DNA of 60,777 nt, filler included, from Sphacelaria rigidula (Eukaryota), in assembly GCA_964200075.2 (NCBI GenBank). It is 4 parts of 4 records of this genome, joined end to end, with 100 filler letters (N's around TTAATTAATTAA, not from the genome) between each part and the next. Parts side by side here need not be neighbours in the genome. Positions count along the whole stretch, not along the records: positions 1 to 15,123 come from CAXNAA020001896.1; 3 more parts are not named here. One strand, 5' to 3'. Each line of letters opens with the position of its first letter. Positions within the stretch are counted from its first letter, which is position 1. The notes beneath the pieces were generated by a model. That model was given only the letters and a program-made list of their open reading frames with translations, searched no databases and had not been told where the DNA came from. Shown piece after piece: positions 6,263 through 60,699 of this stretch. The translations under genes were made by a program, and so were the position numbers.

Positions 6263-9170
6263 CTGTAGGTATGAGAGAGTCAGAGCTGCAGTTCGTCGCT
6301 GGCACAGACTGGTGGAGTCCGACACCCAAGGGAACGGCGCGCGCGGGGGGACGGGGCAATCAGTACTGTGAATCTAGACATCAATCGTGACCCAGGGAGG
6401 CATCGCCCGCTCATATCTGCAGACCTCAGACATATGTACTCCGAAGATCAAGGACCTTCATTCAACATAGGAGGTACACTTATGACACTGCTTAGCAGCA
6501 TCACATGCAACGTTGCGGGCAATAACGGTAGCCATAATATACAACAATCGATAAAGGTATCATTGCGGGGTATTTGAAAACCTTCAAAACTCAGGGCTAC
6601 GGACGACTGACAGCAAATCTCATTATCAAACGAGAGGGGGAGCTTGAGCTTACAGAAGGAAGTAGTCCGATCACAAAATATCGAACAACAACGTTGGGGC
6701 TGAAAATTGCGCTGCGTGTACGTGGTCAGGGACCAAAATCTCACTTTTGGATAATGAGTGGATAAATAACAAAGTCTACGTCGAATTGGGGGGCAGGTTG
6801 GACTTCCGCTTGGTCAAGTAGGTGACTGCTGCTCGTGGAGGTAAGTGTATGCGCCTTCAAGCTGGTTCGTGATGACCATGTCATTTCGCTCGACTCTACG
6901 CGAACGAACTCAAGAGGCGGGGAGGAAGACATCACATGTGTGTTGTGTGAACTGATTTGACATGACTGTTTCACGACTGAGTGACAAATGAACAAACCCG
7001 GCATACAGTTCATCAACGATCAACACACATCGATCGAGATCGAGATGAGTCACAAAGCAGCCAAAACGCCCCGCTCGTTTCGACTTTACATTCTCCCCGA
7101 CCTTCTCCCCGACCGCCACCCGTCTGGGGCTGGTTGTGTCGGGGTAGGCTAACCCCATCGACAACACAACCAGTAAGTAAGGGAGGGTAAGTTGACCTAC
7201 TTTGCCTGCGTTTCGTGTCAGTGGTGATGCAACAGTCTAGGTCGTGGGTCATACCGACGGTGCCAACGTCCAGGCTCGATCCTGCAGCTTCGGAGTTCTA
7301 CCCTAGAATGGGAACCACATTGAACCCCGCAGCTGCAGCGTTTTACCCGGCGTTGAGACACTGTCACGGGAATCACGTTGATGGGGATGAGGCATGTGTG
7401 AGTAAGTATCAGATTCGATGGACTGGAGATAGCGGCCGAAGCAGGATGGGAAGGCTGCACCCTCCCCGTGAGATAAAAAAGCAAGGCAACTACTGTGATA
7501 GACGTGCCACAGAAAAATCTGAACAGAAAAAAAGCTCGCCCGTAAAATTAGGAGGCGGAACAGACCGAGAAAGAGAGCCGAGCAAAGTGAGAGACGCGTG
7601 AATATAGAGAAGGCTAAAGCTAGGACGCGTAGTGGGGAGCTCAAAGTGGCTACCTATAACGTCCGTATACTGTCCCTCACGGGAAGAACGGAGCTGGCTA
7701 TACTGAGGTGATCCTGTAGAAATATAAGGCAGTCCGATGTGACGTCATCGGGCTACAGGAATTGAGGAGACCAGGCTGATCCGAGTTTTGGGCGTCGGGA
7801 TATCGTGTCTTTTGCTGCGGGGTAGAGGGGGGCAAGGGAAGGGCTGGTCAACATAGGGCTGGGCTGGCGGTCAAGGAGTCGATCATCAGCAAGGCCACGT
7901 GGACTCAGGCACTCATCAGCGAACACCTCATGTCGATAACTTTCAACCTAGCGGGTAAATCAAATGCTGCTACCTTTGTATTTGCTTATGCTCCTACAGA
8001 CACTCCACAGTCAAGAGAAGAGAGAGATTTGTCCTGGAATGAGTTAGACGGCATTGTCAACCGTATCCCCTACAAACATCATCTGTTTATTTTAATGGAC
8101 GCTAACGCGAGGACTGGAGTACAAACAGGCGAGGAGTAACGTAAAATTGTAGAAGCATTCGGCTGGGACATTTGATCCAATGACAGTAATGGCAAATCTA
8201 TAATGCAGTTTGCAGGCGACAACAGGCTTTTCCCGGTCAACACGTTCTTTTCCACCCCGAAGGGAAACACCTCGCGTACGTTCAACGATGTTGCGAATCG
8301 CCCCGCGGACAAGAAACCCATTGACTATATCATCACACGGCAAGACCACCGCAGGCTTGTTCGCAATGTCACCGTCCACCCTCAACCCCCCAACTCGCTG
8401 GACTCTGACCACAACACTGTGTGCGCCTCAGTGCGGCTCCTTGGTCGCTTCGCACACCACAGACCTAGACGAATCCCAATTGGGCATACACCGATCGACG
8501 GACGGGCAATTGTATCTGACCCCGACAGACGTGAGCAGCTCACCCAGCTCATCACCAGCGAGCTCAAACAGAGTATACAGGGTGATACAGTTTGCTTCCT
8601 GGGTACGAACTTTGCCGACGTACTCTTGGGTGCCGCTGAAAAGGTAGTACCCCGTCTGACCCGAAAGCCACGTATACCGGGGTGGTTCAAGGATGCTGAA
8701 ATCAGAACGGAATTTGAACAGGCCTAGATGGAGAGGGAAAGGGTGGGATCAAGGGTGAGACTGAGATCATCTCGAGATGAACCCGCATGGCGCACATTGC
8801 GAGCAGCATGCAAAAAGTCAAAGAGGGGATCCAAGTTGGGGTGAACAAATATATGGATGTGTATGCTAAAGGACTAGAGGAGTCTACTCGAGCGGGGGAC
8901 ATGAAAGGATGGTACAGACATCTCAACGGAGGGTGGAGACTATCTGGACGATCCATCGAGAGTGAACAGTACATTCGAGATGAGGACGGCAATTTACTGC
9001 GGGACAAAGGTTTGATCGGTGGGAGATGCGAACGGTACTTCTCTACATTGCTGAACGCCACATCGGCAACTATCTACCCAACCGTCATCGAGAAGATTGC
9101 TCAACGACCAGTAGCGCTATCACTAGGAGACCCACCAAAGCCCGAGTGAAACCGAGGAGGCTCGAGAGCT

Positions 9171-10049
9171 ATGTCGAACGGCAAAGCAACCGGTCCGGAT
9201 GATATTCCTGCTGAAATCCTGAAGCTTGGACTCAACGGGGAGGCGTCGGAGATTCTGTACCACTTCCACAACATCGTCTCTGTAGTTTGGACATCTGGCG
9301 AGATGCCGCAACAATGGAAAGATGTCACCATCAAATCGCTACACAAGAAGAAGGATAGGACCGAGTGTGGTAACTACAGAGGCATTTCACTTGTGGTACA
9401 TACTGCTAATGTTCTCCTTAAAATCGTAGGCAGCAGGCTCGATAACTTTTGTGAGGAAGTTGATGTCTTCCCGGAAGAGCAGTGCGGATTTAGGCGCCAA
9501 AGATCGACCATAGACATGACGTTCGTAGTACGCCGACTCCAGGAGTTGGGACGGACGAACAACATCCCAGTAAACATGTGCTTGATCGATCTGCAGAAAG
9601 CCTACGATTCCGTAGACCGCACGCTCCCGTGGGAAGTGCTTGCTCGGTTTGGAGTCCCGTCGCGAATGATCACGATCAGTCCTATATTTCACGACGGCAT
9701 GCGAGCTCGGGTACAGCAAGATAGTGGCGAACTATCAGCTTGTGTCCACGTCTGCCAGGGACTCAGACAAGATTGCGTTTCGTCTCCGCCGTTGTCCAGC
9801 ATCTTCGGAGCAGGCTTTGTGGAAGTGATCGTTCAGCGGTTTGCGGCGGACCCAGTCATCGTCTTGGACTTGGTCTTTCTAGATGATGCGTCAAAAGGTG
9901 ACGGTGGTGAACCCATGGAAGAGACACCGCTGGAAAAGGAGCGACGCGCGGTGTGGGCAGTGCTTGATGCGGATGACGCCGGCATAGCCTCGAGGACCTC
10001 AGAAGGCCTTTCTCGAATGATGGCCATGATGGTGATGACTTGCCAGTAA
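9171..10049 (+). pseudogene. Reverse transcriptase domain fragment of the RTE LINE
   Basis: 292-aa ORF with non-LTR RT motifs, truncated by a stop codon, with a degenerate catalytic motif. Confidence 0.9.
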
Positions 10050-10321
10050 TTCGGCCTTATGGTCTCCGAGAGCAAGACAGAGTCCATGCGCCTTCGGTCA
10101 GTAGCCAGTCCCACGGAGGCCGCCCTGGATATCAAAGCTACCGGTCAACGGTATAAGCAGACGGGGGGAAGTTCATCTACCTTGGTGGAGCTATCAGCGC
10201 GGACGCGAAAATATCCATCGAAATCAACCTCCGTGTCAGCTCGGCGTGGGCGCGTATCCAAAACTGTAGCTCCCAACTCCACGCCACCCTTGAACGTTCG
10301 ACTGCTTGAGACCGCTCCTTA

Positions 10322-10791
10322 TAGCAGGCAAAAATATAAATATGAAAAAGTGCCTTTTTAGAGCTTTTGAGCCGTTTCACCCCCTGAAAGAGAGCTAGAC
10401 GGATTTTGACACCTTGGGATGATTCGCGGTACTCGTTGAGACGGTTCCAGCACACCTGTGCGTTTTTCCGGTGGCCGCAGTTTCTCTCTTGACCAGACTT
10501 GTATTTTCTCGGAGATCGCCCATTTTTCTCGGAGATCGGTCAAGTCGACACAACAAGGTTTTCTACGCTTGACGGGTCTCCGAGAAAAATGAGCGATCCC
10601 CGAGAAAAATGCAAGTCTAGGCAAGAAAAAAGCTGTGGCACCGGAAGAATACACAGGTGTGTTGGATCTGTCTCAACGAGTACAGCAAGACATTAGAGGG
10701 TGTCGAAATCCGCCTAGCTCTCTTTCAGGGCGTGAAACGACTTGGAAGCTCCAAAAAGGTACTTTTTCCAGGTTTATATTCTTGTCTGCTA
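10322..10791. mobile_element. Palindromic MITE inserted in the LINE ORF
   Basis: Long imperfect inverted arms tagcaggcaaaaatataaa and tttatattcttgtctgcta. Removal restores ctc ctt aaa att agc (LLKIS) ahead of AEVVKALLYGC. Confidence 0.85.
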
Positions 10792-12119
10792 AAATTAGCA
10801 GCCTAAAGCGGAGGTGGTAAAAGCTCTGTTGTATGGATGTTCCACATGGACGCTACGTTCTGAGGACTTCGACAGTCTGCAGACTGCCCATCAGAAGCTC
10901 TTGCTGCGAGTGGTTGGTTTCCGCAGAAAAGGTCGAAATGGCCACAAGACCCTTTCGTACAGAGCGGTTCTCAAGATGACCAACTGCGAATCTATCGAGA
11001 CGACTACCCGCAAACCTCAACTCTGGTTCGCGGGAGCCCTTGTCCGGCAGAAGGAAACCCGCCTTCCTGAGCGCGTCATGAACGGTCGGTTAACCACACG
11101 AGGGCCCAAGAAGGCCCGCCGCCTCCCCAAGCAATGGAAGGATACCCTCCAGGAGAACATACGTGCACTAGGGGCCATCACTCACAAAGGAGCCCGACGG
11201 GAATGGCTCGTCTACGGTCTAGAGGATAACGATGCATACGATTGGGTCACCGCGGCGAAGAACATGGGCAAATGGCATATTGGGGTCGAAAAAGAAGCGG
11301 AAGAGTTTGAGGACACGTGGTGATGCGTGGGCAAACGAAAATCAGACCGCTGTCACAAGCGAGAGGCTGCTGCGTCAAGGGCCGCCAATCGAAGAATCCT
11401 GTCTGCTCACATCGGTTGCGATTATGTCCTTACTCGGTGGCTCTGCGGTGCCCACTGGTGTGTGTCTGTATCTACTTTGCTGCCCTGAATCCCTTGGGCT
11501 TTTCCCTTCTTCTTTTTCTTCTTCTTCTTTATTTTTTTTAATTCAGATCGGACATTTCTTTCTGTGCTTTGCTTTTGTTGACCTTTTATTCCTTTTTTTT
11601 CAAAGTCGTAGTCTACTATGTCGTTCTGCTCGAGCTTTTCTGTTTTTTCGTTTTCTTCAGCGAGTGTTTCAGTTTGGTTTCCTCGGGTACGTCTATCATG
11701 TGACCACGGCTGGATCCCTGGGGGGGGGGCAGTTAAAGTGGAACAATCAATGAAGCAATCAATCACTCAAAGGAGGACAATCGAGCTTGACCTTGTCCCT
11801 TGCCCCTCCCCCCCCCCATCCACGAGCAACCAACCCCCCCACCCAAGCAACAAATGAGTACGCCCCCCCATCCACGAGGGACATTCAACACAGGGGGTAG
11901 CACCCACTTCTGCATTGCTTCATGAGTCAACATTACATCAAACGCAGCTACAACAGTTTATACCTCAACAAACACGACATTTCGAACGAGCTCTCGACTG
12001 CGTACATAATCTCGTCATGGTCGCCGTAGAGGGACCCAAATCGTTTTGCGATTCCTGGGTGACGGACAATAAACAAAACCCACCTGGGAGCGACGGGAGA
12101 GAGGGGGGAAGGGGGTGGG

Positions 12120-12690
12120 GCGGGGTATATTCATTTGTTGCTTGCCGTAGTCGTTTGACAATCGACCACACATCCCTTTTAAGACGAGGCAAGGGGAGGG
12201 CGGGGGGCGTTCTCGTTTTTTGCTTGCCGTAGTCATTTGACAACATCACGCATCCCTTTCGAGACGGACCACCGCTCCTACTCCCAAAAAAAACACCTCC
12301 AACATTTCGGTGCTCATTACATTTCTTCCACACGTTACCCACACACCTTTTTTATATCATATCCCCTTCCTTTCTCGCCGTGTGTGGCCACCATCCATCT
12401 CCAAGTAAAATGATTAGTTCCTCGCTACTGTCTAATCAATCAAACGATTTCACGCCTCCTTCGTTTACTGCCCACATTCCCTCTCTAGCACGTCCCTTTC
12501 CTCCTTGTATAGTTCACATTCTGCCACTACATGACTTCTGCTCTCTATTTCTGTGCCACAGGGGCAATTCTGTGCCCCTACTTCTTCCTCCACCTGGTTA
12601 CTATAGTATACCTCTTTATTTTTTCTGGTAGATCCAGGCCCCCCACCCGAAATCGCCGTTTCAATTTCCTCGCGGGGTCCATTCGGCCGC
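12120..12690 (-). mobile_element. 3' fragment of a second LINE family (C-terminal CCHC zinc region)
   Basis: Frameshifted translation RFRVGGLDLPE...CPCGTEIESRSHVVAECELY...NVWKKCNE...RKGC. The same 3' end recurs on the + strand at 59897-59953 (ggaaggggtgcgtggtcaatggtcaaacgactaaggcgagcaacaaatgagtacgc). Confidence 0.7.
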
Positions 12691-15123: not shown

Positions 15124-15222
15124 NNNNNNNNNNNNNNNNNNNNNNNNNNNNNNNNNNNNNNNNNNNNTTAATTAATTAANNNNNNNNNNNNNNNNNNNNN
15201 NNNNNNNNNNNNNNNNNNNNNN
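15124..15222. other. Assembly gap with artificial TTAATTAATTAA linker
   Basis: N-run/ttaattaattaa/N-run. The same construct occurs at 30346-30444 and 45563-45662; other gaps lie at 22136-22145 and 41107-41796. Confidence 0.95.
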
Positions 15223-16456
15223 NCCTACTGATTATCTTGCATTCGGATGACAGCCTCCAATGAGTTGCTTTATTTTCTGGTATCGCCACTTCCTGAGCAC
15301 TAGTCCGGGCAAATTTGGTGAGGCATCAGATAATATTGCTAATTTGGCCATAGGCTGTCGCTACCGTGCGCTCGTGTATTGTACAAAGATATGTGTGAGC
15401 GTTGCCGGCATCCGAGGTCATCGGGACAGGGCGGGTAAGAAGCAGAAGCAAATATGCGAACCTCGCAAAGCCCGCCAGATTTTTTTCGCGTTTTTTTGTC
15501 AGTGTTTGTTGACCAATTTCTTTCAACAATATCAACAAAAAATCGACAGAATGTCGACAATTTCCGAAAAATTGCCCTCCGGGAACGGGGGGGTAGGGGG
15601 GGGGGCTCCGTGTCCGAATTGTTCCTTACGCGACAGACCCTTGGCTGCACCCAAAAAAAGCGCATGAAAACAAGCGCCGCCGCTTTTCTTCTTGGAGGGG
15701 AAGGGGTATCGCGGCGACGAATGAACGTTCTTCTTGTTCCTTGGTCCCGCTTCCCGACGTTTCTCAGCACATTGTTTTCCGATCGAAAATGTGCAGTGGA
15801 AAAGGAAAATTCCGATTTGATAGGCCATGACCTCAACTATCATCATTAATGTTGACACGACGACCTGTCTGGTAGATCGGAATTTTGTTTTCAACCACAT
15901 TTTTTCGAACGGAAAATAGGTTGCTCAACGTTTGATCATTCTTCGAGTCTATTTGAGTTGAGGGATCTGACGACGTCCGGGAACTCAATTCCCTAGATGA
16001 GTGTCCCCTCTAGCCCTTTTATCGGGCTACTGAAACAAGAATTGGGATTGTGTGATGTTCGATTGTGAAGCTATCATGCTGCCTCCGTGCGCCGAAAGGT
16101 TCCCAAACATTGTAAGGTATACTCTACTGTCGCCTTTTTCTCGCTCCCTTTTTACGAGTCTTCTTGTGGTACCGCAGGGAGAAGCTTTCATCTGGTAAAA
16201 AAAATATCCTTGAGAAGCCCCGAAACATTGCCCTCTCTCACTGCCCCCCAGAACTCAAACGCCAAAAGCCAAAGATTGTCGCAAATATTCACAGGTGCTT
16301 CAGATATAATACGGTGTGCTCTGTCTTGGCGTTCTCTCATGTTTTTTCTTTCTCACGTTCGGCTCCATTCGCGTTTGTCCCATACTTTCACCCGCTTTTC
16401 GTCATCTCCCAAGGGCGGATCAAACTTTGCCGATCATATGTACGCATCTGCACCAG

Positions 16457-19400
16457 GACCGTCTGGCTCCGTTTTCCTCGCGGGGCTTTCAGCCAGCAAC
16501 TGGACCCTCCCTACATCCAGCCCTTCGGCAAACACCAACAACACTGTACCCGACCTCCTCAACAAAGGAATGAACGATTTCGCCGCGGTGAGCTTAGGCA
16601 GCACGGGGGCTCTTCGATGGCAGTGGCAGGTGAGATGTCGAAACCGTCGCTGGCAGTACCGCGGGCCGTCGGCCAAAACTGGTGTTGTAATGTGCCTGTT
16701 TTTTTGTCTTTGTTTGATTTGTTTTCAGCGTTTTTTCTCAATTTTTTTTTACTCTCAGACAGCGACCCCCCCCCCCCCTCCCCCCCATACGTGGACTAAG
16801 ATGGACAATGCCACATTTAGGGTTCAGGATACTATATATTTTTCTCGCGACACGAAACGCCTGTTTCATGAACATGTAGATGTTTGGCATTTTATGGAGA
16901 AAATTGTCCCGGAGAACCCCTGACCAGTTTTGACCCTGCAGTCAACCAACAGCCGATCATCAAAATTGAGGGTAAATGTTTCCGTTGAGGATGAGCAAGC
17001 CCCGGAACGGCGCATGAAAATTGCCAATATATTTGTTCCCCGAAAATACTTTGATAGTTCTTGGATAAAAATGCGAGTTCGGCAAAAAATCCGAAAGGTG
17101 CCCTGAACCCTCTACAGTTTACTTTGGTCCAGCGGACCGCCCGAAACTCAAAAGCCACGCGCGACCCCTATTTATAATAATCCGACTCGCCGCTGATAAT
17201 TACTGTTCTTATTATTTCGTATTAAAACTGGCCGCCGGAAAACAATGTTGCATGTGTACTGGGTCAAACCTGAACTCCCAAGTTCGAAAGGCGCTTTCGT
17301 TTGGTTGAAATTCAAATTCAGGTCTTGAACCACATTTAAAATAAAAACAATCCCGACCACTATAGGTATGGGTGACACAATCATTTGAGCGATCCGGTTG
17401 GACCTTGAGAATTCGAATCTCACTCTACTGCTCCTTTTATGTTGACCTTTGGCAACCGAACTCTCCGGGGGAAAATATATGGGCACTTTCCGCGCGCCGT
17501 TCCGGGACTTCCTTGTCCCCAATGAAAAGCTCCATCCTCAATTTTGATGATCGGCTGTAGGCTGCGTGCAGAATGATCATGTGTGCTGTATGTCTTCGCT
17601 GGATAACGACAACAGACTGAGCGTGTCATCGCTCTCCATTGAACAGTCTATCGTGTATTACTCACAATCCAACGCTTCCCACGGTGTAAATCGGACGTTA
17701 CGAAAAAAAACCCATTGCATCGGGAATCGAACCCTCGTTCTCTCCACCCTAATGGCGACACTCGGAACATCACACCACCGGGGCGCGGCGGCGCGTAATG
17801 GGGTGTGTCGAACGTATGACGCCGAAAAAGATTAGAGGAGAACGAACACGTGCCCCAACATGTCACACTCACGGATGTCGAAGAGGTTGAGGAGGAGCCC
17901 TTCACGCGAGGAGCGCGGATTGTGGGACGAAGAAAGTAACGCCCAAGAAAAATTCCGTGCTCTTACCGTACAGTATGAGTACGTGCTTTTTGTATATCGA
18001 CGCTGACCAGAAGCGTTCGACGCAATTTTCAACAAAACGCTGTGTGTGTGCACCGCTCTTCAACAGAACGAACGAACCCTGTTTTAAGTCTATATATATT
18101 TTTGTGGGGGTGTGACAATGCGTGTCTCGACTCGTTCCGGTAGGACGGTACCGCGCAGAACGACGAAATACATGGGGCAGCCTCTAACGTCAATGGCTCT
18201 GTTTTGCTGGTGGGGGAAACTGGTGGAAACTGGGCCGGACCTAGCGCCGGGGGCGCCGACTTTGCTGCTGTCATGTTGAATTCCGACGGAAGTGTTGAAT
18301 GGAGATGGCAGGTAAGCGACACGAACTTATGTGCTGGGTGGAGGCAGTGTTTTTCCGTCGGCTTTTTGTCTTTTCCTTCTTTTCTCTTTTTGGCCCTCGT
18401 CTCGTGTGTTGTCATCGTGACGAAATGGGCGTGTGCGACCGATGGAAGAATGCCCGGCGCAATCGTGATCCCGGTACTGCGAGATGACTCCTCCCTCCTG
18501 CGTGTGTTGTGGTGGTCCTTGGTGGTCGGTCGTTCGACTATTATATGACTTCGCTGCGCAGGACGGTACGGCCTCGATAGACGAGATGCACGCTGTCGCG
18601 GCAGACGCAGATGGCACGTTCGTCTTGGCAGGGTTTACGTTCGGAAACTTCGATGGCTTGCACCAGGGCGGAAGTCGCGACTTTGTGGCTGTCAAGCTTG
18701 ATGGTGACGGAAGTGAGATATGGCGCTGGCAGGTGAGGGGACCTCCGGAGACGACCAGAACGGGTGCTCTCCACTTTGTGTCGTGTGTGTTCCGTGCTTG
18801 CGGCTTGAACATGATTACGTTGAGCTTTTTTTTTTCCATCGCAAGATCGTTACTGTCATCAGATCAGACGGGATTTCAGGTGACGTCTAGAAACGCGTTC
18901 GCGCCGCGCAATATCAATCAACCGTGTGAGAGGCGATAGCCCGATTCATCTCCAAAATTTGCGGATGAATGCCGTGGCATCGCCGCTGGGGGCCACGATG
19001 TCCACGTTATATGGTTGGCTAGACGATCGGCGAACGTGGGTGAAAAACTGAATATTATACCTTTGGAGTCGGATGAAGTCAAGAGTGCACACCTGGTTGT
19101 GCAACAAAACCAATACTAAGGCTACTTCTTCTGTGTAAAAAAATGAATCTTCTTGAAAAGTGCATATCTGGCTCTTCTCCGTCGTTTTCCCTCCGAAAAA
19201 AGAGGGCTAGGCGGATGTTGACACCTTGGAATGACTTGCTCTACTCGCTGAGGCCGTTCCAGAGCACCTTTGCGTTTTCCGTACGTCACAGTTTTCGTTT
19301 TTGGTCAAAATTACATTTTCAATAACAAACGGTCAAGTTATTAAAGAACAGGGGGGAAAACTGACACTTTTTTGGTAAGTTGACTGTTTGTTATTGAAAT

Positions 19401-22044
19401 TTGTTTCAAGTGTGATGTGACCAAAAACAAAGCTGTGACGTACGGAAAACGCAAAGGTGCTCTGGAACGACCTCAGCGAGTAGAGCAAGTTATTCCAAGG
19501 TGTCAACATCCGCCTAGCCCTCTTTTTTCGGAGGGAAAACGACGGAGAAGAGCCAAAAATGCACTTTTCAACAATATTCATTTTTTGATACATGAGAAGT
19601 AGCCTAATAGGTGCGTGAAAAACGGGGTGGCCTCAAGTCTGATTTGGGTTTTCTCGAGCCACGAACCGTCGCGCTGGGGACGTCTCAAACCACCAACGTC
19701 TTTTCACAGCGGTCTAATCGAGCACTTATCTCCGGTGACACAACGGTGCCTTCATCTCGAGCGTGTGGATCGAAGAATAAATACACCCTTCGCACGACAT
19801 GTGTTTTGTTTTACGCATTCATGCATGTGCTGCAAAGGAAACGAAACATGAATGTACATCGCTGCTCGCACAACTCAGCGAGTTTTTCTTCCGACGTGCA
19901 CGTTCTACTTAGTAGCCGTGGCTGATGCGGAGTTCCCCCCATTTCGTTCCACAGGACGGCACCGCCGGCGATGACATGCTGAGGGCCGTGACCGTAGCGA
20001 GAGACGGCTCCATTGTCCTGGCCGGTTCCACCGAGGGTGCCTGGAATGGAGTGTCCACTGCCTCGTATTATAATGCCGATTTCGCCGCTGTCAAGCTTGA
20101 TGCTGCCGGGACGGAGGTGTGGCGCTATCAGGCGAGTGGCCGTGTGTCGGCTGTTTTTCATGCACCTTATGCGTAGGCGCCCTACTAGAGCTACGCCATC
20201 CTGCGACACGCGTTTTCCTACTACTGTAGCGATCCGACACATCTCTATAATTTTACCGCGTCAACCTCGCAAATTACTCCGATAATAAACACGAAATTTC
20301 AACAGCGTGTGTGCAACCCGCGCGGTGTTGGGTGTACACAACGCTGCCGTACTTGGCCTCATCACTGCCTCCCCGCTGTGCTTTTTCCCCCTCAATACCC
20401 TCTCGTCGGGGCCGTTATTTTTTGCGTTTCGCGTGCAGTTGACGACTCCTTCGGCCCGTGTCTGAAACGCCACGCGGCGATATCCATACATTCCTGTCGC
20501 GGAGATCGCCTGTAGTGTCTTTTCAACTCACCCTCAGTTCGTCGATTGTTCGTGTTTTTATTTTTGTGGCGCAGGAAGGTACCGGAAGCACAGAACGTCT
20601 CCACGCAGCAGCAGTGGGAGGAGATGGCTCCGTCATTCTCGCCGGCGATACTTGGGGAAACTTCGCTGGCGCAAACTACGGAAGGCTTGACTTTGCAGCT
20701 ATAAAGCTAAACGCGGCCGGCGTTGAGCAATGGCGGTGGCAGGTGGGATCCAGATCATGACGGATGGCGCCGCTGGGAAAAGTTGCAACGTTTCATGGTA
20801 GGGTAGGCATGGGCGGGATCGCTGAGGCGTGGCGACACCGCGTGATATCCTACCAATGGTACAGCACTTGCTCCTCGATTGGTTTTCTCGTCCATTTTTT
20901 CCCCTGCTCGGCGGATAAATGGTGCGTAAGTATGATGGCTTCTCGATCGGTGAAGTTGATGGTGCAGGTGTGAGTATCTTGGCCGTGAAACAGCGACGGA
21001 GAGGTGGTCATTACGCCAAGAGAAGGTGAAGAGTATTGGAAGCAGAAGTGCGGCCGTCGTATTTGCGGCTGTTTTGCTGGGTATGTGTGAGAGGTGAGGT
21101 TGCCATGCTACAATAACATCTTCAAGAGAGACAGCTAGAAATTAACGTCGCCGGTGGATTGCTGATAACGTAAGTTGGTCATGCAAGCATGCTTGAGAGA
21201 CAGCCGGATATTCAACGCGGATTTATCGTCATTCCTTCGTTCTGCCGGCAGGGAGGAACAGTTATGCAGGACTACTTGTTCGCAGCTTCTATGCTGGGAG
21301 ACGGCACTGTGATGCTGGCCGGAGATACAGAGGGTAGCTGGGGTGCTGTAAACGCTGGCCACAAGGACTTTGTCGCTGTGATTCTGGACAGCAACGGGAA
21401 TGAGACCCGGCGTTGGCAAGTGAGTGGTTTAGTGACTGCCGCAGTCACGACTCCCCTTCCGTTCTGCGCATCACGCTGCGTTGCTTTTGAAAATCCACAC
21501 ACAGTAGCAGCCGCTCGGTGCACGTTCAATCTCCCCACTAGGACCACAACGTGATGCGTGGAGTAGGAAACCACCCCCCCCATAAGCCCACGGAAAAACG
21601 ATGAACATGTCAATAAGAAATACCTCGCACGTCTATCATATGTGCAACCCCGCCACGTGGATTCGGTACCTCGCTTACCGCAGTCAGGGATGATCCCAGT
21701 TGTGACTGCCCGAAATCGATTTGAGTGTTGGTGCTGCATGCATTCGGCGTCCTTTGTCGAGGTCGAGGTGAAGAAGCTCCGCCAAACCCTGGTATAGGCG
21801 GAAGACTTGCCATTGCATGATGCTTCGCGCGCGTCAAACGTTCTCATCGGTTGCGACCGCCCTGCCGGCCGCTTTTGCGCAGGACGGGACGGCGCAAGAC
21901 GATGAATTCGACACAATCGCGCTCGTGGCGAACGGAAGGGTGGTCCTGACAGGATCTACGTTCGGACCTTGGGACGGCGCTCACGGTGGAAGGGGCGACT
22001 TCGCTGCTGTCAAGCTGAACACGGGGAATATCCCCGCGGCCTGA
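16457..22044 (+). CDS. Beta-propeller-like repeat protein, one repeat per exon (5' part not identified)
   Basis: Exons 16457-16629, 18144-18311, 18562-18732, 19955-20131 (GC donor), 20575-20742, 21252-21419 and 21883-22044 (stop). Consensus DGT...D.h.a.....DGsvvLaG.T.G.w.g...G..DFaAVkL...G...WRWQ. All have AG acceptors and splice in frame. Confidence 0.9.
17705..17792 (-). mobile_element. tRNA-like head (SINE head or tRNA pseudogene)
   Basis: The reverse strand reads gccccggtggtgtgatg...gagggttcgattcccgatgcaatggg followed by a T-run: B-box GGTTCGATTCC, a weak A-box and a Pol III terminator. Its start resembles the SINE head ending at 25280. Confidence 0.5.
19120..19604. mobile_element. PIF/Harbinger-like palindromic MITE (TAA TSD) in an intron
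   Basis: TIRs ggctacttct and agaagtagcc, extended by ~180-bp inverted arms. TAA at 19117-19119 and 19605-19607. Confidence 0.9.
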
Positions 22045-24919
22045 ACGTGAACGAATTTTCCATTCCATCCGCCCACCCGCCGGACGCCCCCGCCTCGCGC
22101 CCCCTTCCCACTGCTGCTGCCGCACGCCCTCTTCCNNNNNNNNNNCAAGCGGAAAAGGGGGGAAACCCCCCCGGCCGGACCGGGAAACAATTTTCCCTTC
22201 CCCCCCCCCCCCCCCCCCCCCCCCCCTTCCCTTCCCCCCTCGTTTGTTATTGCCGCTGCGTCGGTACTTGATTATGATTGCTGTCGCCGGTACGTCATCT
22301 TCTGACACGGCAACCCCACCAACCGTTGATGTACTTCCAGCACTCTCAGTAAAGCAGCACCAGTCATGAGTGCTTGTGGATATCTCGCCTGCATGTTGAC
22401 ATCACATGTACTAGCTGCAAAAACATTTGTTGTCAGGGTGAAAGTCGTTGGCGGTGAAACCAATAGGGGAAAGCCAGATAACTCTTGTTTTTTTTTCATG
22501 TTTTTTTTCAAAGCTTGGGAGAACAAACGGTGGAATACGTATGGACTCTACTGAGATAGGGTGGTGTGGAGCAATTGCTTTTTTTGCGACGTTCGACTCG
22601 CATGGAGTCAAGCCAAAGTCCAGGGACTGCTCTGCAATTGCTTGTCAAGGACTGTGCCAGCCAGCCCCGTAGACCGTCGGGTACGGCACCCCTCGTCGAC
22701 ACCACGTGGCACTAGATTTGTCTCCGTGTGGATTGGTACTAGATGGGAGAAGGAAGCGGGATAGTGTCGATGTCGCTGACAGGGTAGGCGTTGTGACTTG
22801 ATCCCCCCCCGCCCCCCCCCCCTCCCCAAGCCGCGGGCTGTGGCAGGTAGGAGTCGTGATAACGTGGTCAGAGTGAGGTGCTGAGCTCCTGTGTGTGCTG
22901 CAACGCGCGAGCGCTAGTCAGTCACTTGTTTACTTTATTTGTCCCTCATTGCGGTGTCTTGAAAGCAAAGCAGAAAAATACAATGAAATTTATGAGGAAT
23001 AAAAGAAGAAACGGGGTTGCGAACGGAAGTAGACAAGGGCAATAGCTGATGCCGGAAAAATCCCCCCAAAATCCAATATTTACGATTCGACAATTTTTAT
23101 GCTTTTAATGTTATTTTTCTACAGTAGATAAGAATGAGTGAAAAATCTCCCAAGTCCGAATACAGCCATGTACAACGAATGGGACCGCCGAACCCGCGCG
23201 CGAGCGCCTTGTGAACATCGTACGGTAGATTTAACGTATAGATTGAGTCGCTAGTTTTACTCCCCGATTCTTGGATGCCGTGTGTCGTACCAGCGCGTGT
23301 GAGTGTCTGAACTTTGAAAACCCTGGAGTCCGGTATCTTCTAATCGAATTGATGTACGTCTTCGTTGGCGTAGTCCTGCGCAATGTCCTCACATTGACGG
23401 TTTCCCCATGTCATTGGATGACGCCTCAAAATAGTCGTACTCCACACGAGGTTTACACGGGGGTGTCGCATTCGATGTACCGGAGGTTGAGGACGTTTTA
23501 GACATGATCGAGGTACTGCCATTGCGTTTGGGGTCCCTCAAGCCCCCCCCCCCCCCCCTTCCCCCTCCCCCAGGCCAAGCGTGTATTATACGAGGGCAAT
23601 CGCGCAAAGATTCGCCGTACGTTATGTTGTGCATCATTTATAGCGAGTGAATTTGTAGACCCCACAACAGTGCTTGAAGGTACAGCGTGTTTCTTTTGAA
23701 CTCATGCTCGTAATATTGGACTGCTTGTTTTAGGACCATGGTTGTTCAGCGAACGTGTATATGTAAACTATATCGCGTAGAGAGGAAAGCGCCTTTCCGC
23801 CGTTGTTCGTTCTGTAGACTGACTTGACCCTTCGACCGCCAAGCTGGATAATTCGTTGACTCGGCATCATTATTTGCGGTTTGAAAACGAACGTGAGATG
23901 AAGATGCCCCCCCCCCCCCCTGACGGTTCGAACGATGGAGCTCCAAGTGGTCAACGCCAATTCCAAGTACTGCAAGGAGGAACGCACCCGTTTGAATATA
24001 ATGCTCTGGAATTGTGTGTTTTGATTGACTGTGCAAGACGTGGGGAGTATGAAAGTATACTCTGTTGCATACGGGCTTGGTTGACCGTCGTAAGCTGCGG
24101 GTTCATCTTGCCGTCTGGGAGTTGTAGTGGAGTGACTTCTTCTGTTTTTTGCAAAAAATGCTGTCTTATAGTTTATGTACTTTTTGTGTGTTCATCCGAA
24201 TATCATAGATTTTGATGGCGGTTGAGTGGAAATTCTTGAGACCGTAGAGTTTCGAATAAAGTTCCTGGTCCAGTTATCGGAATCGTGTTGTGAAGAGGAC
24301 GCCATGGGGTACTCCCCCCTTGTTGCGGTATCATTGTCTCTTTGACATAAGCCGAGAAGGGTGCTAACTCAGGCTTTCGACAACCAGCCATACCACGGAG
24401 ATATCGTTGACTTGAGCCAGCGCTGCGTGGACCATATATATACATATGTTTAATAAGAGTACGCTCTTGTAGAGGCCTCTGAATTTTCTTATATGGTGAC
24501 GTGCATCGTGGATTGTCGGGCTGGACGCTGCAGGCTTGACCCCCATGTCGCCAGGGAAAACTACAGCACGTAGCGAGCATCATCGATTGTGAGAACAACC
24601 GTGGTGTATTACACACATGTGAGAGGCATGTGTACTCGATATTTGAATGAGAAATGAGGGTGGTGTGGAACGAGACAAGTCGGGGTTTTCCCCTCTTTTG
24701 CTGTTTACCCCCCATCCTCTCTTTCCCTGCACGGACCAGCTCCGTTGTGTTGAAAGAGGCTGCTACTCTCGCAGTACTGTATTGCTTCTGATGACCATTG
24801 AGGCGACATGGTGCGGGAGTGTTGATTCAACCCGCGATATGAACATGTAGGGTGATTGTCGTGGGCGAGATGGGTAGATCCCTGGAGACGAATGACTCGT
24901 TCTGAGGAGGGGGAGACAT

Positions 24920-29350: not shown

Positions 29351-32300
29351 AATGATTCTTTTCCTGCGAGTTTTGATGGATGACCCCAGTCTGCAAAGAC
29401 TTGGGACCAATTTTGTTTCTCTCTCTTTTCCGTCGTGGACTACAAATGATCCACACTTGTAGCCGTCCCTTCCTTCATCAGCTGATGGACGTGGCGCTTT
29501 CAGTAGTCACTCGAACATCTGTAGTATCAATAGTTCTGGCCAAGGCCGAAGCATGCATAACTGTTCTGAATTTTGCATTAACACGTTCGGTCTCACCAAC
29601 TCTGAAATTCACACCAACAAGCCGGCATGGTACCTACCGATGGCAAAAGCTCAAGCGCAACTTCCGCATTCTAAACCGTAACTGGCCTAGTCACAACGGT
29701 GACAGAAATCATCAGAGATCCAACAACGGTCGCCGTAACTTTGATGATCGTGACGAAAGCATCAAGAACAGCAACGTTTTCTCACCAAAGATATGGTTTA
29801 TCTTCTCGAGGCAACCACCGCAGTGATGACCGTCATCAACGGACTGAGCTGAACCCTGTGACTCAAAACCGAACAATCGGAAATGATTTTTTTCATGACG
29901 CATCGAACGGTTCAATGACTGTCCGACGTCGGCATTTTCAGTCTTCGGCGCGGTCGACAACACCCACGAAGTAGTACCCTAATGGTTTTTTCAGCATTTC
30001 CCACGGAGCCAGCGACTAATCGTTTTTGCTTGACCCCTTCGGTGCATCATAGAAATAAGTGCCTGCCGAAACATACCATACCCGCGCCACCTCTCCCGTC
30101 TCGATCTAAAAGCCATGTTATTTCGCTCATGTTTTGCACGCAGATCTGGAACTGCCCCCCTAAAGATGAGTGCAAGTCTCAGGTGTGCAATTCCAGACCG
30201 CCAATCGTCGGGGCTACGGCTTAACCCCGCAATAGCACGCGACGGTGGTGAGTTCTCTTTCGTTCAGTCCTGCACGACGGATTTGGACGCCGTCACTTCG
30301 GACCATTGTGCATCGGTTCAAGAGTCATCCTACGATAGGGGGGGGNNNNNNNNNNNNNNNNNNNNNNNNNNNNNNNNNNNNNNNNNNNNTTAATTAATTA
30401 ANNNNNNNNNNNNNNNNNNNNNNNNNNNNNNNNNNNNNNNNNNNNGTGGATTCTGGAGAAGTCCCTCACTGAATAGCCCTCTTGTCCAGATCGTCTGGCA
30501 GAGGCTATAAAGCACGATCGAGGTGCATTCATGACTAGGATGCGAACGTCCATATGTCGGCGTAGTCTCTGTCCCTACAGACGGCAACGCTTTAATCGGA
30601 AATGGGTTCTAACGCAGTGCACGAGGGGTGGTCAGGGAGCGATAACGATCTCTTCGAAATTTGGGGAGTACCGGCCTGTTCCACTCTAAAGTTTCCATCT
30701 GTCTGAGCCCACACGCAATCTCTCCCTTGGAGTTCACGTGCGCTTGCTACATCAGGGTTATCTTCATGACCATCTGGAGGAGCCCGCCTAGGGTGACGCG
30801 TATAGCGCACAAAAGGGTCGGCGGCTCCAGGAGCTATTGAAATGAGTTATCGGACACCCGAACCTAGGTCACGCTCATGGCGCACCACCTGAGTCGCTGT
30901 CACTTGAGTGTGTGGCTTTGAATTTGGTGTTCCCCGATAAACAGTCGGAGAGGCAGTGTCTACCGTAACAGAAGATATTTCGGCTCCGGATGCGTTAGAA
31001 ACTGCACTACATGACTTCCTCTCCTTCGAAGGGAAGGGGTTCGATTGAATGCGATTGATACCTGGCGGATTTAAAACCGGGTGATCAAATCCAGGATCAA
31101 AACGTTGGGTTTGGTCAATGCTCCATTGATAGCCATGCGACGGTGCACGGGCCTCGACTGTCTTGGAACCCTTCAAGGCAGTGCCAGCATATCCAGGGAA
31201 CCCACACCACATGGTTGAACCCGCGGTGGCCGTCGTTGATTCACGTGTGTGATGTTTGTGACCTGGCCAAGCGAAAACAAATTGTTGACATAAAATTGTT
31301 GGAAACTTCTGCGGTGAAATACCGGTCATTGTTTATTTCTGATTGTGGGATTGTACCCACTGATGATAAATAAACTACAGAAGTAGAAAATGAACAGGCA
31401 GGTGGCGGCGCTTAGGTTTTGGGCTAAGCAACGCGTCCCGAGTTACTCCACTGGATACTATTTGGAATCTCCGAAACGTATAGAACGTTCCCAAAAGGTT
31501 GTCAAGTTGTGAGGTGGGCATCAGTGTTGTGTGGGTACCGCCCTGGTGGGGTGCGGAGGTCATCGTCAGGAAAGGTTTTCGTAGCATTAGGGCTCCCGTG
31601 GAGAGAGATCCATCTTAGAACGAAGAGTGGGAACACCGTCGGCGGTTTGAGTGGCTGGTTGGTGTACAGGGGAGTGGGCACCAACGGGGTTAGGATGAGC
31701 ATATGGAGGAGGGTTGTCTTCATCCACACTCACGTCCCTGAAAAATCGTCCTGCAACAACGCCATCATCAACATCGAAACGTTCCGGTTCGTTGTTGCCA
31801 ACCGTCTCACTACGCATGATTTGGGCTAACTGTGCGGTTCTTTTACCATTGTTTGTAGGGAGCGCACCGCCCTTCGCGACATCGTGCTCCGATGAAGTCG
31901 AAGGGCGGTTGGTATCAGACGTGGCTTGTACATTCTCGCAATTGCGCCAGACCGGTAACGTAGAGATGCGGGAGTTGAAAAGTGAACGTTTCGTTATGGG
32001 AGACAGCATAGTTGTTGAGGACTGAGGTGAGTGAACAAAAATAAAAGGAATAGAATGGCAGGGTACTGTCGACAGTTTTCGATCGACATGTAGGTCCGCG
32101 CACTCCGCACGTGTAGTAATCTATCACTTTTTCCATCAGGTGCAGACGAAAGGAAAACAAATATGTCGAAGGCACACAACAAACCGTATGTGTGTGCGTT
32201 GGTAGATAAAGTGTAGCAGCAAAGAGACAAGAAGAAAGCGAAAGTTGTCACAATCAACAGACATACAGTGGCTGTCACCAGCGAAACAGCGCATTGGACA

Positions 32301-38009: not shown

Positions 38010-41000
38010 CAAACTGCTGTGAAGTCTCCAACAATAACTGCGTACATAGGCGCATGACGGCTGAAACGATCGGTTAAGAGTAAGATGTAGGCGTTGCCAC
38101 TTTCAGTGGTGAGTAAAGGACTGACACAGTCGAAACACATGAGGTGACCAGGAGCAGTGGGAAGTATCATTGAAATGGCTGGCCAACGTATCGTCTGCCA
38201 TGAGAATTTGCGAGCTTGACACTTGAAGCATCGCCGAATCCAGAAGGGTGGACACTTCAACATCTATCCACCAGTACAAACACAACGTTCGAGTAATGCT
38301 AATGTGCGCGTGACACCAAAGTGGTAAGCCAGGCCAGTGTGGCAGCCTTTCACTACCCACGGTCGCATCAAAAATGGGGTATTTTTCCGGGTGGGTTCAT
38401 CGTCGAGTAGGCGTGCATGACGACCAGTGATCGCGGGTGAAGTTACACCCAGCTGGGGCGTAGGGCTGCGGAAAAGCAGTTGGATACGGTTATCAGTTGT
38501 GAAGATATTACCTTTACATGCGATATCGCACACATCAGAGGCGTTTGGTGGTGGCATTGCACCAGCCGGGGCCAGAACATTGACCGGGACAAGGGCAGGG
38601 CAACCAGCATGGAGGTACCGCATGGTTGCGCGGCATAATCGTCCTGCTTGTTCGGCACGAGCCCAATCACGATGGGAGTAACTGGCGAGGAGCTCGCGCA
38701 GTTGGCCTCACACCGGAGAGCCGACCAGACATGGTGGCTCAGGGAGCGGTGGAACAGGCGACGGGGCGGAGGTGCCAACGTCGACATGTACATCGGGATC
38801 AGCAGAACGGGTGGGCACTGGCGGCGCCGCGGAGGGTGGCGTTTTCGAAGTAGTGCGCGCCGCAGAGCTTGCTCGGCGCTTGTTGTGAGAATTGCGCGTG
38901 GCAGGTGTTGTCAAGGCTCGTGGTGCTGTGTCGCGGGGAGCCAGCGCTACACTGCTCGCAGGAGCAACAGGTGTTGTCAGTGGCGGCGGGGCGCGGGGAG
39001 GGTTGGCGCGGGCGGCAGACCGAGAACGTATTGTGGGAAATGAGATGGACAACTGGAGGTGGCGAAATTGAAGTGTTTGCGCGAGGACCGATAGTACGGA
39101 AATCGGCGAAATTGGCGGCTATGGGTTTTAGCCCATCCAAGACTGCATCATACGGTAGGTGGCGAGGGCCGCCCATGTGCATACCCGTCTCTGGGCAATG
39201 AAGGTCAAGGGCCCAAATGGGCGTTGAGAAACGCCGGATAGGGTAGACGCCTGGTTCATCGGGTTGAGTTTGTCGGCAAGCTGGGCTGAAATCTACAGCC
39301 GTCGGAGGAAGGGGCGGGCAGGAGAGAAGGTTAGCATTACCATTGGTTCTGCCAGGGCGTTGTTTGACAGTATACTGATAAGCTGTCAGGAATTCCAACC
39401 AGCGTTGCACATGCGGATCATCTTCACCAACCTTGGCGAGTTGTTCAAGTGCCCCGTGATCCGTGTAGGTTTGGAAAGGCACGTAGAACAAATATTGTCG
39501 GAGGCGCTTTATGGCCCAAGTGATGACTCCGCCTGCCAACTCCTGTGGGCTTCAGACGACCTCGTTGGGCAGGGTGGCGCGACTGATATAGAGGATGGGT
39601 CGAACGGAGCCATCGAGTTGAGGCTGATTCAGGACCGCGCCGAACCCGTCCGCACTGGCATCTGTGTGTTGTTGGAAGAGGCGAGAACCGTCTTGTACTG
39701 CATCCCGATCTGGGAAACAAAGGATCGATTGTTCGGTGAGAGTTTTCAACCAATGGCGAACGATAGCTTCCGTCTCTTTGGTGAAGACAAACGCGGCGCC
39801 TTTTTCAAGCAAGTCCGTAATGGGGCGAATCCGTTTGGATAGGTTAGGCAAAAACGTTGCGATAGTAGGAAAGTCTGCCCAACAATGAGCGGAGCTGAGT
39901 GATGTTCGTGGGCATCGGCAATTCAATCATTGCTCTGACGTTTTTGGTTTCCGAGTGTAGACCCGCCGGTAAAATTTAATGTCCCAGGAAATCCAGTTCA
40001 GTCGCGCCAAGGCGAGCTTTGAATGGAGACAGTTTCCAATCGTGCGTGCGAAGCCGAGAAAAAAACTACTCTGAGGTGCGGAGAAGAGGCGAGGCATCAA
40101 AGGCGATAGCGCCGTTCAAGTACATGATGACGTGTTTGAAATCCTCTGTAACGCGCTGCATTGAGCATTGAAAAACAACCTGGTGCAGTGGCGGCGCCTT
40201 GTGGCATATAGAGTCATTCGTAGAGCCCGGAAGATGTACAGAACGCTGTCAGTGGGATTGTGTCGGGATGAATGGCATTCTGGAAAAAATCCAGGAGCGG
40301 GTTCGAAGAGACTGAATATATTTTGCCTTCGCCTAGAGAGTCGAAGACTTCATCTATGCGAGGAATTCGAAGTTCCCCACCACAGTAAAGCGGTTCAGCC
40401 CTTAATAACTCACGGTGATGCGTATGCTTCCATCCTCTTTGGGGACTACCACTAGGGGTGAGGCCCATGGAGAAAATGAGTGTTGGGTTGATCCGGCACC
40501 TAAGGACGCATCTAAAATAGCGTCAACTGTTTTGGTCAGGATGGGGTTCGTCCGATATGGTCGAGAAGAGATTGGCGAACGCCAGGTTGGAGTGAACATT
40601 TCAAAGGGCAGCGTTTCTAAGTGCCCCAGATCCGTTTCGAGTTGAGAAAACTGGTCTTGGTATTCCAATAAAACATCGCTCAATTCTTTGATTACAGTGG
40701 GTTCCCAACCGGGCCCATAAAGGTCAAAGTTGATATCACGTAAATGAGATGGAAGTTGATTCCACATGTGCAAGAGAATTCTCCGAGATTCTGGTGATTG
40801 GCGTTGGAGCTCTTCAGCAGGAGGGTCGGAAGTTGACGGTGCAGGGTCCACGGTGTGATACGTGATGGAGACGAAGAGGTTACGTCGAAGTAAGGCTCAT
40901 CGACGCAATTGACAGGACCGTCTATCGGAGGCGCCGAGTTGGGCGTCGTGGGTTCAGTCTCAATTGGAATGTGCATGAGGGGAGCAGCAGCGATACCCGA

Positions 41001-59809: not shown

Positions 59810-60699
59810 GTGAGGACCAGCCCTTCCTAGCAAAGACAATCAGTTGCTAGCGAAATCCGGAGGTTTTCCCCCTTCTTATCCCCCTGTTGCTTCGTCTCGG
59901 AAGGGGTGCGTGGTCAATGGTCAAACGACTAAGGCGAGCAACAAATGAGTACGCTCTGTAGCTCTGAGCATACGCTAATTTCAGTGTTTTGGTCAGACGT
60001 GTTCATCTCTCTACACGGAACAGGTAGAGCGAACGCTGAATATTTGACGCGAGGACTCAAGTGATGAGGACGCTACTTCCAAAGTTTCATTACTTTGGCC
60101 CACGACGTGGCTGCTCGACATGACCCTTCGGGACGACCGCGTGCACTATCCGTATTGACAGATAGGGAGCGAAAATCGGGTGCTTGTCATAGAGAGCTCC
60201 ATTAAAGCAGTAGCACAGCATTTGCCCCTTTTCTCTAGTTCCGGCGCACTTCGTCTTCTTTTTTCGTTTTAGACTCATAGATTCATACAATTCACTGTAC
60301 GCAGACACCACAAGCTGAAGGTCAACGCTAGTGTAGTTCTCCCTCTCCATGGGCATGGGGAGCAGGTTATGTACCGGAATCAAAGGCTCTAAAAGAACAG
60401 GATACATAGCGTCTTGAGCGGGACGCGGGTGCATATATCCCTCTGTTTACATGCAAGGGGGGAGCGGGGCGAGGGGGAAGAGCGTGCGACGTTGGAAGCT
60501 TCACGCTTGTTCGTAAGTACGAAGCTGTCCCGATTTATTAGTACGCTACATATCTGACTAACTAATGCCCACGAGGAACGTCTCTGAACCCGGGCAATTT
60601 TTTCTGCGCGTATTTCCTACTTCTCACCGGTTTTCGTGGCGTCTCTCTTCTTATTTTATTATTGGTAATGTGTCTTGCAAGCAATAGCAGGAAACGGTA

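Follow-up and report, generated by a model that had tools for sequence, protein, structure and literature searches.

The 60,777-nt window analysed in this work (the whole stretch of Sphacelaria rigidula DNA, joined from four parts of four records of assembly GCA_964200075.2 with filler letters between them) contains a degraded copy of an RTE-type long interspersed nuclear element (LINE) of a high-copy family. The element encodes an apurinic-type endonuclease (APE) and a reverse transcriptase (RT) and occupies approximately positions 7107-11770 of the plus strand. Its first open reading frame (ORF) carries two tandem stretches resembling PAM2, the motif that binds the MLLE domain of poly(A)-binding protein (PABP), and a motif of the same type was found directly behind the start codon of the polyproteins of related LINE families. 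From these sequence comparisons we consider the conserved N-terminal PAM2-type feature of the LINE polyprotein to be real, and its function plausible though unproven. We suggest, as the probable reading, that the motif docks on the MLLE domain of the host cytoplasmic PABP.

The stop-to-stop ORF at 7191-7601 (+), whose translation includes ...VVMQQSRSWVIPTVPTSRLDPAASEFYPRMGTTLNPAAAAFYPALRH... and, as a longer stretch running to the stop, ...VVMQQSRSWVIPTVPTSRLDPAASEFYPRMGTTLNPAAAAFYPALRHCHGNHVDGDEACVSKYQIRWTGDSGRSRMGRLHPPREIKKQGNYCDRRATEKSEQKKSSPVKLGG..., has the first ATG of the element at 7227 and the next ATG of the same frame at 7308. The original prediction had rightly placed both PAM2-like motifs in this ORF, with a start at 7215 that has to be corrected to 7227. 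The motifs stand 15 residues apart, at 7269-7304 (motif 1, SRLDPAASEFYP) and 7314-7349 (motif 2, TTLNPAAAAFYP). As given in the accessible part of PMC7356810, the canonical PAM2 consensus is LNxxAxEFxP, in which L and F/W fill two hydrophobic pockets of MLLE, N and the following P stabilise a turn, and A must be small. The core of motif 2, LNPAAAAFYP, meets the L, N, P, A, F and P of this consensus, and that of motif 1, LDPAASEFYP, retains E-F and has D for the consensus N. In relatives motif 1 reads RLTPVAAEFNP, RLNPAASEFHP or RLNPVAAEFNP; judging from these, it was apparently once L-N-P, the D of the window being a private change. The two window motifs are identical at 20 of 30 bases, and four of their seven common residues (L, P, F and P) are written with different codons. 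These four synonymous differences point to constraint at the protein level.

A scan with the PAM2 profile, which the original prediction had called for, gave a divided result: Pfam PAM2 (PF07145) picked out both window stretches with E=0.0015 and 18.5 bits, where the cut-off is 20, and it passed 20 bits in the close relatives P0319 (20.4) and P0321 (21.9), with two stretches in each. Lower scores were obtained for P0148 (17.5), P0035 (16.8), P0036 (14.4) and P0320 (11.6), and no PAM2 match for P0033, P0044, P0123, P0306 and P0322. With the motif at the extreme N-terminus, the first positions of the model are cut off. As a background, a loose PAM2 pattern was matched 13 times when the N-terminal regions of 327 proteins were set aside (245,077 residues), which corresponds to about 0.007 matches expected in 136 residues, and the window ORF has two. 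Measured against this background, the window motifs do not appear to be due to chance.

The setting of the motif was examined on an AlphaFold 2 model of the relative P0044 (mean pLDDT 74.5). It shows no secondary structure for residues 1-67, where pLDDT is below 50; a helix spans residues 61-110 (pLDDT ~67-69), and the endonuclease begins at residue 112. The motif is thus predicted to lie in a disordered region, the usual setting of a short linear motif, and the basic segment is predicted to form a long helix on residues 61-110. Further searches with the N-terminal part added little: no similar protein was found for the PAM2 ORF among longer proteins at E<=10, which is weak evidence; a protein atlas search with the N-terminal ORF gave no usable match; and a PDB sequence search with P0319 gave a chance antibody match alone (E=0.53). 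Right after motif 2 there is a Cys/His-rich patch, R-H-C-H-G-x-H-V-D (RHCHGNHVD in the window, 7359-7385), invariant in five aligned subfamily sequences and not present in other families. It is possibly a metal-binding site or a subfamily-specific contact.

The original prediction took the motifs to belong to the element itself, and read depth agrees. Logan contigs from four sequencing runs (X1, X3, X4 and X6) were aligned on 6900-8900 at 80% likeness. In X1 the summed contig depth rises from 68 over 6900-7100 to 22,844 over 7101-7167, and X3, X4 and X6 climb likewise; loose contig ends without consensus stand before 7101, 7105 and 7107. This jump in depth and the loose ends place the 5' end of the LINE at ~7107 and the PAM2 region inside the element, and the depth across the element indicates that the family is highly repeated. 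Within the window the LINE is present in a single copy, according to self-comparison. None of the 40 best-supported base differences of the contigs lies within 7260-7350, with 556 more differences beyond those 40.

That the motif is conserved and not confined to the window became clear from related polyproteins. A search with a piece of the RT among longer proteins gave 453 matches, the best 120 of which were examined. Among the matches listed, P0033 (1240 aa) begins M-G-LNPKARAWTP, P0035 (1205 aa) M-G-S-V-LNPNAMVFVP, P0036 (1223 aa) M-P-F-I-FNPNAKEFIP and P0044 (1199 aa) M-R-LNPEAPVWTP. In all four the motif start is followed by ~100 residues that end Arg/Lys-rich, and then by the endonuclease and RT, in one ORF. 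The same start recurs inside the clusters: eight members of the P0035 cluster have it, one of them with I for F, as do 10 of the P0044 cluster and 2 of the P0036 cluster. In the P0003 cluster, which has 2648 members and, with 64% RT identity, is the family nearest to the window, P0123 begins M-G-F-K-LNPGAVEFFP and continues in one frame via ...VSKQQIRYAGGDERCGRRRVGLLNPL...KKRLARKCRRRTRPERRR... into the endonuclease; by tblastn its residues 1-79 align on window positions 7308-7532, with M1 exactly at the ATG at 7308. When P0044 was compared by phmmer with 1.84 billion representatives and 150 proteins, mostly ~30% identical, were examined, the motif was found among these 150 matches in the fragment P0306 alone (M-G-LNPNAPAWTP).

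Taken together, the motif stands at residues 3-14 in P0033, P0035, P0036, P0044, P0123, P0306 and P0322, and is present in seven of the nine related clusters that have 100 or more residues ahead of the endonuclease. Among distant RTE-like proteins it was present in none of five with at least 100 residues upstream and in none of three with 70-87 residues upstream. The motif-bearing clusters whose models extend far enough are all single ORFs with Exo_endo_phos and RVT_1 domains. The single PAM2-basic-APE-RT ORF envisaged in the original prediction therefore holds for intact relatives; most copies of the window subfamily carry a -1 offset instead, as described below.

These families share the start pattern M-G-x-x-L-N-P-x-A-x-x-[F/W]-x-P, and the rest of their N-termini can barely be aligned. 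In an alignment of ten N-termini the columns kept ahead of the basic segment are the M, G, L, N, P, A, F/W and P of the motif, V-[SG]-[KT] and G-x-L-[HN]-x-P. Every canonical PAM2 determinant (L, N, turn-P, small A, and F/W at position 10) is kept across the ten, with W instead of F in three families, like the PAM2w of LARP4/4B. With RT-region identities to P0044 of 69% (P0033), 59% (P0035), 56% (P0036) and 49% (P0003), the alignment indicates that the motif was retained while the rest of the N-terminus diverged. N-myristoylation behind the M-G start was considered and ruled out, as P0036 (MPF...) and P0044 (MRL...) have no G2. The G-x-L-[HN]-(x)-P sequence, which follows Arg residues (GRLHPP in the window, 7449-7466), is common to all families and lies behind the PAM2 motif and ahead of the basic segment, at residues ~50-70 of P0033, P0035, P0036, P0044 and P0123, and is found also in the motif-less P0053 and P0090; it may be another short linear motif.

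The closest relatives of the window ORF form a subfamily of their own. A search among proteins of similar length gave P0319, P0320, P0321 and P0322, to which the clusters added P0323-P0327; all are 63-70% identical to the window ORF over the alignment. Tandem motifs follow an upstream M in all of these relatives except P0322, e.g. RLTPVAAEFNP...NLNPAAAEFYP, and the tandem arrangement, as far as sequences indicate, is a trait of this subfamily, with a single motif in the other families. In the window the frame one base back (7523-7711) reads TEKKLARKIRRRNRPRKR...ELKVATYNVR, in full TEKKLARKIRRRNRPRKRAEQSERRVNIEKAKARTRSGELKVATYNVR, and one extra A in the run of seven at 7527-7533 would give QKKKLARK, exactly as in P0325, which reads EQKKKLARQIRRRNRP... 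(KKKLAR) across the run. One frameshift near the A-run would thus join the PAM2 ORF to a basic segment in frame with KVATYNVR, just as the original prediction had proposed. P0322, from Sphacelaria rigidula, is in frame with one K fewer (KKLAR) and reads EQKKLARKIRRRNRP...KVATYIVRTL, and P0326 departs before the A-run. The offset reading ...EQKKSS..., followed by the frame-0 tail and stop, is found in seven of the ten subfamily sequences (the window, P0319, P0320, P0321, P0323, P0324 and P0327). The basic segment is kept in the -1 frame, as KKLARKIRRRNRPRKR in the window and KKKLARQIRRRNRP in P0325.

If the motif docks on PABP as we suggest, it would, emerging from the ribosome ahead of the rest of the polyprotein, anchor the nascent endonuclease-RT on PABP at the poly(A) tail of its own mRNA. 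In a lineage without an ORF1 RNA-binding protein such tethering would supply cis-preference, together with assembly of the ribonucleoprotein beside the 3' untranslated region (UTR) that the RT must recognise. By occupying the PABP site used by deadenylation and silencing factors, the motif might also shield the mRNA. PABP is not expected to take part in the priming step, because the encoded 3' end is (CAAT)n and not poly(A); for the same reason any link to PABP would run via the transcript's own tail rather than an encoded A-tail. Brown algae would be expected to have an MLLE-bearing PABP. A literature search on MLLE-bearing PABP in stramenopiles gave nothing usable.

Several observations weigh against docking on PABP. 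Motif 1 of the window has lost the consensus N, and the window's PAM2 score stays under the gathering cut-off of Pfam. The motif start was seen in one of the 15 P0003-cluster members listed (P0123), the rest of the models beginning farther downstream, and the clusters of P0053 and P0090 have long N-termini without a recognisable motif. The genomic 3' ends are (CAAT)n or (CAA)n, not poly(A), and the PABP model requires a polyadenylated transcript. Furthermore, in seven of the ten subfamily sequences and apparently in most genomic copies, motif and RT are in different frames. This last point has an explanation compatible with PABP docking, which we regard as a serious possibility, if a somewhat improbable one: the subfamily could be a two-ORF element using programmed -1 ribosomal frameshifting, with A7 as the working state. 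Most ribosomes would then stop at 7599-7601 and release a free ORF1-like product of ~110-125 aa with the double PAM2 motif, and the smaller share, shifting back by one base on G AAA AAA, would make a PAM2-basic-APE-RT fusion in gag/gag-pol fashion. It fits this explanation that the KKSS offset spans two sister groups ~70% identical, that the -1-frame basic segment is conserved in both, and that the -1 frame has no ATG ahead of the endonuclease. Moreover, no A insertion at 7527-7533 was seen among the 12 of 14 contig indel rows covered in the four runs (a rare one-base loss was, at 7527), whereas the window's private frameshift at 7683 appears as an inserted A in 36% of the depth in X1. RNA with A7 would yield A7 copies, in keeping with the A7 majority, while transcriptional slippage with cis-preference would be expected to spread A8. 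An RTE-X family of Ectocarpus is, in the accessible part of PMC12477816, annotated as 'single EN-RT ORF w/ frameshift in consensus'. On the other side, no stable RNA structure was found downstream, at 7534-7650 (minimum free energy -23.3 kcal/mol, mean of the shuffled sequences -25.05, z=+0.63; an equally good or better fold in 149 of 200 shuffles). Programmed -1 slippery sites follow the rule of an X XXY YYZ heptamer. G AAA AAA is an imperfect one: re-pairing would be perfect for the A-site codon but would take a G:U pair at the first position of the P-site codon. The other families clearly have one ORF, K-rich segments easily produce mutating A-runs, the in-frame copies P0325 and P0322 could be the true masters, and the window copy is broken in many other places. 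A7 is the common state of the subfamily copies and in-frame copies are rare, with the caveat that contigs lose or hide rare variants. It seems somewhat more likely that the A7 copies are dead than that they use programmed frameshifting.

Docking on PABP also has to be weighed against the view that the motif is conserved and functional for another reason, i.e. that it has a partner other than MLLE, binds A-rich RNA with the basic segment, or reflects constraint on the DNA or RNA, such as an internal promoter or a 5' RNA signal. The 5' ends of LINEs carry internal promoters, and the Pfam PAM2 scores are marginal; in addition, the LARP4A region with PAM2w itself binds poly(A) RNA, according to the part of PMC6486636 available. 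We nevertheless find this view distinctly unlikely. The conserved set consists of exactly the MLLE-contacting residues (L, N, P, A, F/W, P), variation between families is free at the x positions, the alternation of F and W takes two base changes per codon, and the window motifs keep their residues despite the four synonymous codon differences. The fold of the 5' UTR is unremarkable (z=-1.37). That the motifs are a chance resemblance without function in a dead repeat is extremely improbable: the heavy degradation of the window copy and its sub-threshold Pfam score would be in line with it, but the same motif recurs at the same place after the start codon in seven clusters whose RT regions span the identities given above, the pattern is rare elsewhere, and two close relatives exceed the Pfam cut-off.

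The motif can be compared with those of host proteins. According to the accessible part of PMC7356810, the PAM2 of LARP4 and LARP4B, close to the N-terminus, is of a W type (PAM2w), and in eRF3 two PAM2 motifs overlap. The LINE motif likewise fits LNxxAxEFxP, with F or W at position 10 and an N-terminus predicted to be disordered, and in the window subfamily with two motifs close together. It differs in being part of a retrotransposon polyprotein rather than of a translation or mRNA-decay factor; there is no similarity outside the motif, and binding is here a prediction.

Among retrotransposons, the element resembles RTE-1_Ec32 and RTE-2_Ec32 of Ectocarpus in its single endonuclease-RT polyprotein, length of ~4-4.6 kb, short tandem repeat at the end and thousands of copies. 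The Ectocarpus elements are annotated 'single EN-RT ORF; (CAA)n 3'' in the accessible part of PMC12477816, and their (CAA)n corresponds to (CAAT)n in the window and to (CAA)5 at a related metagenome locus (L001). In a comparison with this annotation, not with the consensus sequences, PAM2 or PABP is not mentioned in the available text of the paper or of its four supplement files (PMC12477816). The AlphaFold 2 model of P0044 has the same endonuclease-RT order as human LINE-1 (L1) ORF2p, and full-length ORF2p is its best fold match (9k6i_A, E=7.6e-33; 8uw3_A, E=4.1e-32). L1 mobility reportedly depends on PABPC1 and on the poly(A) tail of L1, and to our knowledge L1 has no PAM2 motif. While L1 has a separate ORF1p and an encoded poly(A) tail, the algal LINE has no ORF1p, ends in a tetranucleotide repeat and bears an extra disordered N-terminal extension of ~110 aa with PAM2 and the basic segment. 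The enzymatic core is thus ordinary RTE-type, and the N-terminal PAM2 extension is the new part. In line with the original prediction, which had set such a motif outside the known RTE architecture, full-text literature searches, judged by titles and the starts of abstracts of the papers listed, turned up no mention of PAM2 or MLLE in the proteins of LINEs or other retrotransposons, subscription-only papers and Repbase notes lying outside this search.

Retroviruses and LTR (long terminal repeat) elements make gag and gag-pol by -1 frameshifting, and a short overlapping first ORF has been described for RTE-1 of C. elegans. In the window subfamily, likewise, a short upstream ORF and the RT ORF overlap with a -1 offset, and a homopolymer marks their junction. 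In contrast to gag/gag-pol, no downstream stimulatory structure was found in the window, and the sister families have one continuous ORF. A more far-reaching scenario, which we regard as fairly doubtful, would combine docking with recoding. An ORF1-less LINE lineage would have copied a host PAM2 onto the start of its polyprotein to seize PABP co-translationally, and one brown-algal subfamily would split its output by -1 frameshifting at A7 into an abundant free double-PAM2 protein, a minimal ORF1 substitute coating PABP on its own mRNA, and a rare PAM2-endonuclease-RT fusion.

By domain content, probable 3' repeat and fold the element fits an RTE-type LINE, which may belong to RTE or to RTE-X. 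In the downstream pieces of the window copy Pfam found Exo_endo_phos_2 (weak) and RVT_1 (E=8.9e-14). P0003, the closest full-length relative, tracks the element over 7613-11320 by tblastn with at least four frame changes, the alignment picking up again at 10805, past a foldback insertion. With at least four frame changes, stops and the 0.5-kb insertion, the LINE copy in the window is dead. Exo_endo_phos and RVT_1 are the sole significant Pfam domains in seven of seven full-length relatives, none of which has a Pfam RNase H domain or a CCHC-type (zinc knuckle) pattern in its last 330 residues. Named protein matches come from Ectocarpus and Sphacelaria rigidula, which identifies the host as a brown alga; the named Ectocarpus proteins are 48-52% identical to the RT of the window. 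An Rfam search over the whole window gave no match.

The tandem repeat (CAAT)6.8 at 11744-11770 is probably the 3' end of the LINE; there is no poly(A), runs of six or more A being absent from 11324-12000. A scan of metagenome contigs with P0044 gave three loci, of which L001 alone was useful, for the 3' part: it is 80% identical to the C-terminal part of P0044 and has (ATTTT)n and then (CAA)5, ~420 nt past the stop codon. Viral contigs (queries A1 and P0035) and genome contigs (queries A1 and P0036) gave no confirmed locus of relatives. Aligning the 3' regions of the window and L001 globally was uninformative, and a shared 11-mer, GTGACCACGG, may be due to chance. Both flanks of the LINE (7080-7125 and 11789-11880) are C/T-rich, and the unaligned ends of other copies before 7107 finish ...CCTCC-like. 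Either a preference for C-rich targets or a variable 5' terminus rich in C may underlie this, as annotated for Ectocarpus RTE-X families. Placement in RTE-X is conceivable, as the C/T-rich 5' flank resembles the 'C-rich TSD' (target-site duplication) of Ectocarpus RTE-X in the accessible part of PMC12477816. An exact-word search for a target-site duplication gave no convincing match; GACCTT[C/G]TCCC, at ~7099 and 11789, is an unverified candidate found by eye. The parts of the element are listed in the table.

Table. Features of the LINE copy, in window coordinates
Feature	Position	Strand	Remarks
5' end and 5' UTR of the LINE	7107..7226	+	Depth jump and loose contig ends; no ATG inside
First ORF, 124 aa from the ATG at 7227, stop at 7599-7601	7227..7601	+	Holds both PAM2-like motifs, the linker motifs and the frame-0 tail past the A-run
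PAM2-like motif 1 (SRLDPAASEFYP)	7269..7304	+	Upstream of the start codon of other families; D replaces consensus N
Second in-frame ATG	7308..7310	+	Matches the M-G-..-L-N-P start codon of related families; tblastn with P0123 and N-terminal alignment
PAM2 motif 2 (TTLNPAAAAFYP)	7314..7349	+	Has L, N, P, A, F and P of the consensus
Linker motif VSKYQI	7398-7415	+	In the first ORF
Linker motif GRLHPP	7449-7466	+	In the first ORF
A7 run, CAG AAA AAA AGC, where the PAM2 frame meets the APE-RT frame (one base back)	7527..7533	+	
Arg/Lys-rich segment KKLARKIRRRNRPRKR, -1 frame	7529..7576	+	Aligned across families
Apurinic-type endonuclease domain, begins KVATYNVR	7643..8400	+	tblastn with P0003 and P0123; broken by a frameshift at ~7683 and by stops
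Reverse transcriptase core (RVT_1)	9345..9887	+	Pfam RVT_1, E=8.9e-14, ORF 9150-10049
Foldback (palindromic) insertion breaking the RT-to-C-terminal region	10304..10809	.	Self reverse-complement match, 509 bp, 79%
C-terminal part of the polyprotein and stop codon (11321-11323)	10805..11323	+	tblastn, P0003 residues 978-1149
3' UTR ending in (CAAT)6.8 at 11744-11770; (CTT)8 at 11506-11529	11324..11770	+	Tandem Repeats Finder; 3' boundary probable

The insertion that breaks the LINE is a foldback element of ~0.5 kb with arms at 10344-10473 and 10639-10768 that are 82% complementary and contain an inner 41-nt pair (90%). Weaker copies of its arms lie ~9 kb farther along the window (19199-19278 and 19446-19568), and it looks like a repeat of the foldback or miniature inverted-repeat transposable element type. 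Just downstream of the LINE, at 12100-12266, there is a tandem repeat with a unit of ~85 bp (76% identity between neighbours), and a related, inverted 65-bp piece of it lies near the end of the window (59887-59951). A fragment of an LTR-type retrotransposon lies at 38802-39551 (-), where an ORF has an RT_RNaseH domain (E=9.8e-09). The longest open frame of the window, at 49254-51554 (+), encodes 767 aa without a Pfam match at E<=0.001. The window contains 963 N in eight runs, e.g. 15124-15223, 22136-22145, 30346-30445, 41107-41795 (689 N) and 45563-45662, with several paired 44-N blocks; the runs represent gaps of the assembly or masked sequence.

How ORF1-less LINEs find and stay on their own RNA, i.e. 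their cis-preference, is poorly understood, and the link between L1 and PABP is known as a dependency only. If docking on PABP is correct, the N-terminal PAM2 tag would be a direct protein-protein hook from the endonuclease-RT polyprotein to the mRNA-tail machinery, and it would also constitute an example of a mobile element mimicking a short linear motif of its host. The A7 offset bears on whether a retrotransposon outside the LTR elements uses recoding of the gag/gag-pol style. The retention of the tag at the start of the protein in diverged relatives suggests that this group of elements may hook onto the mRNA-tail machinery of the host.

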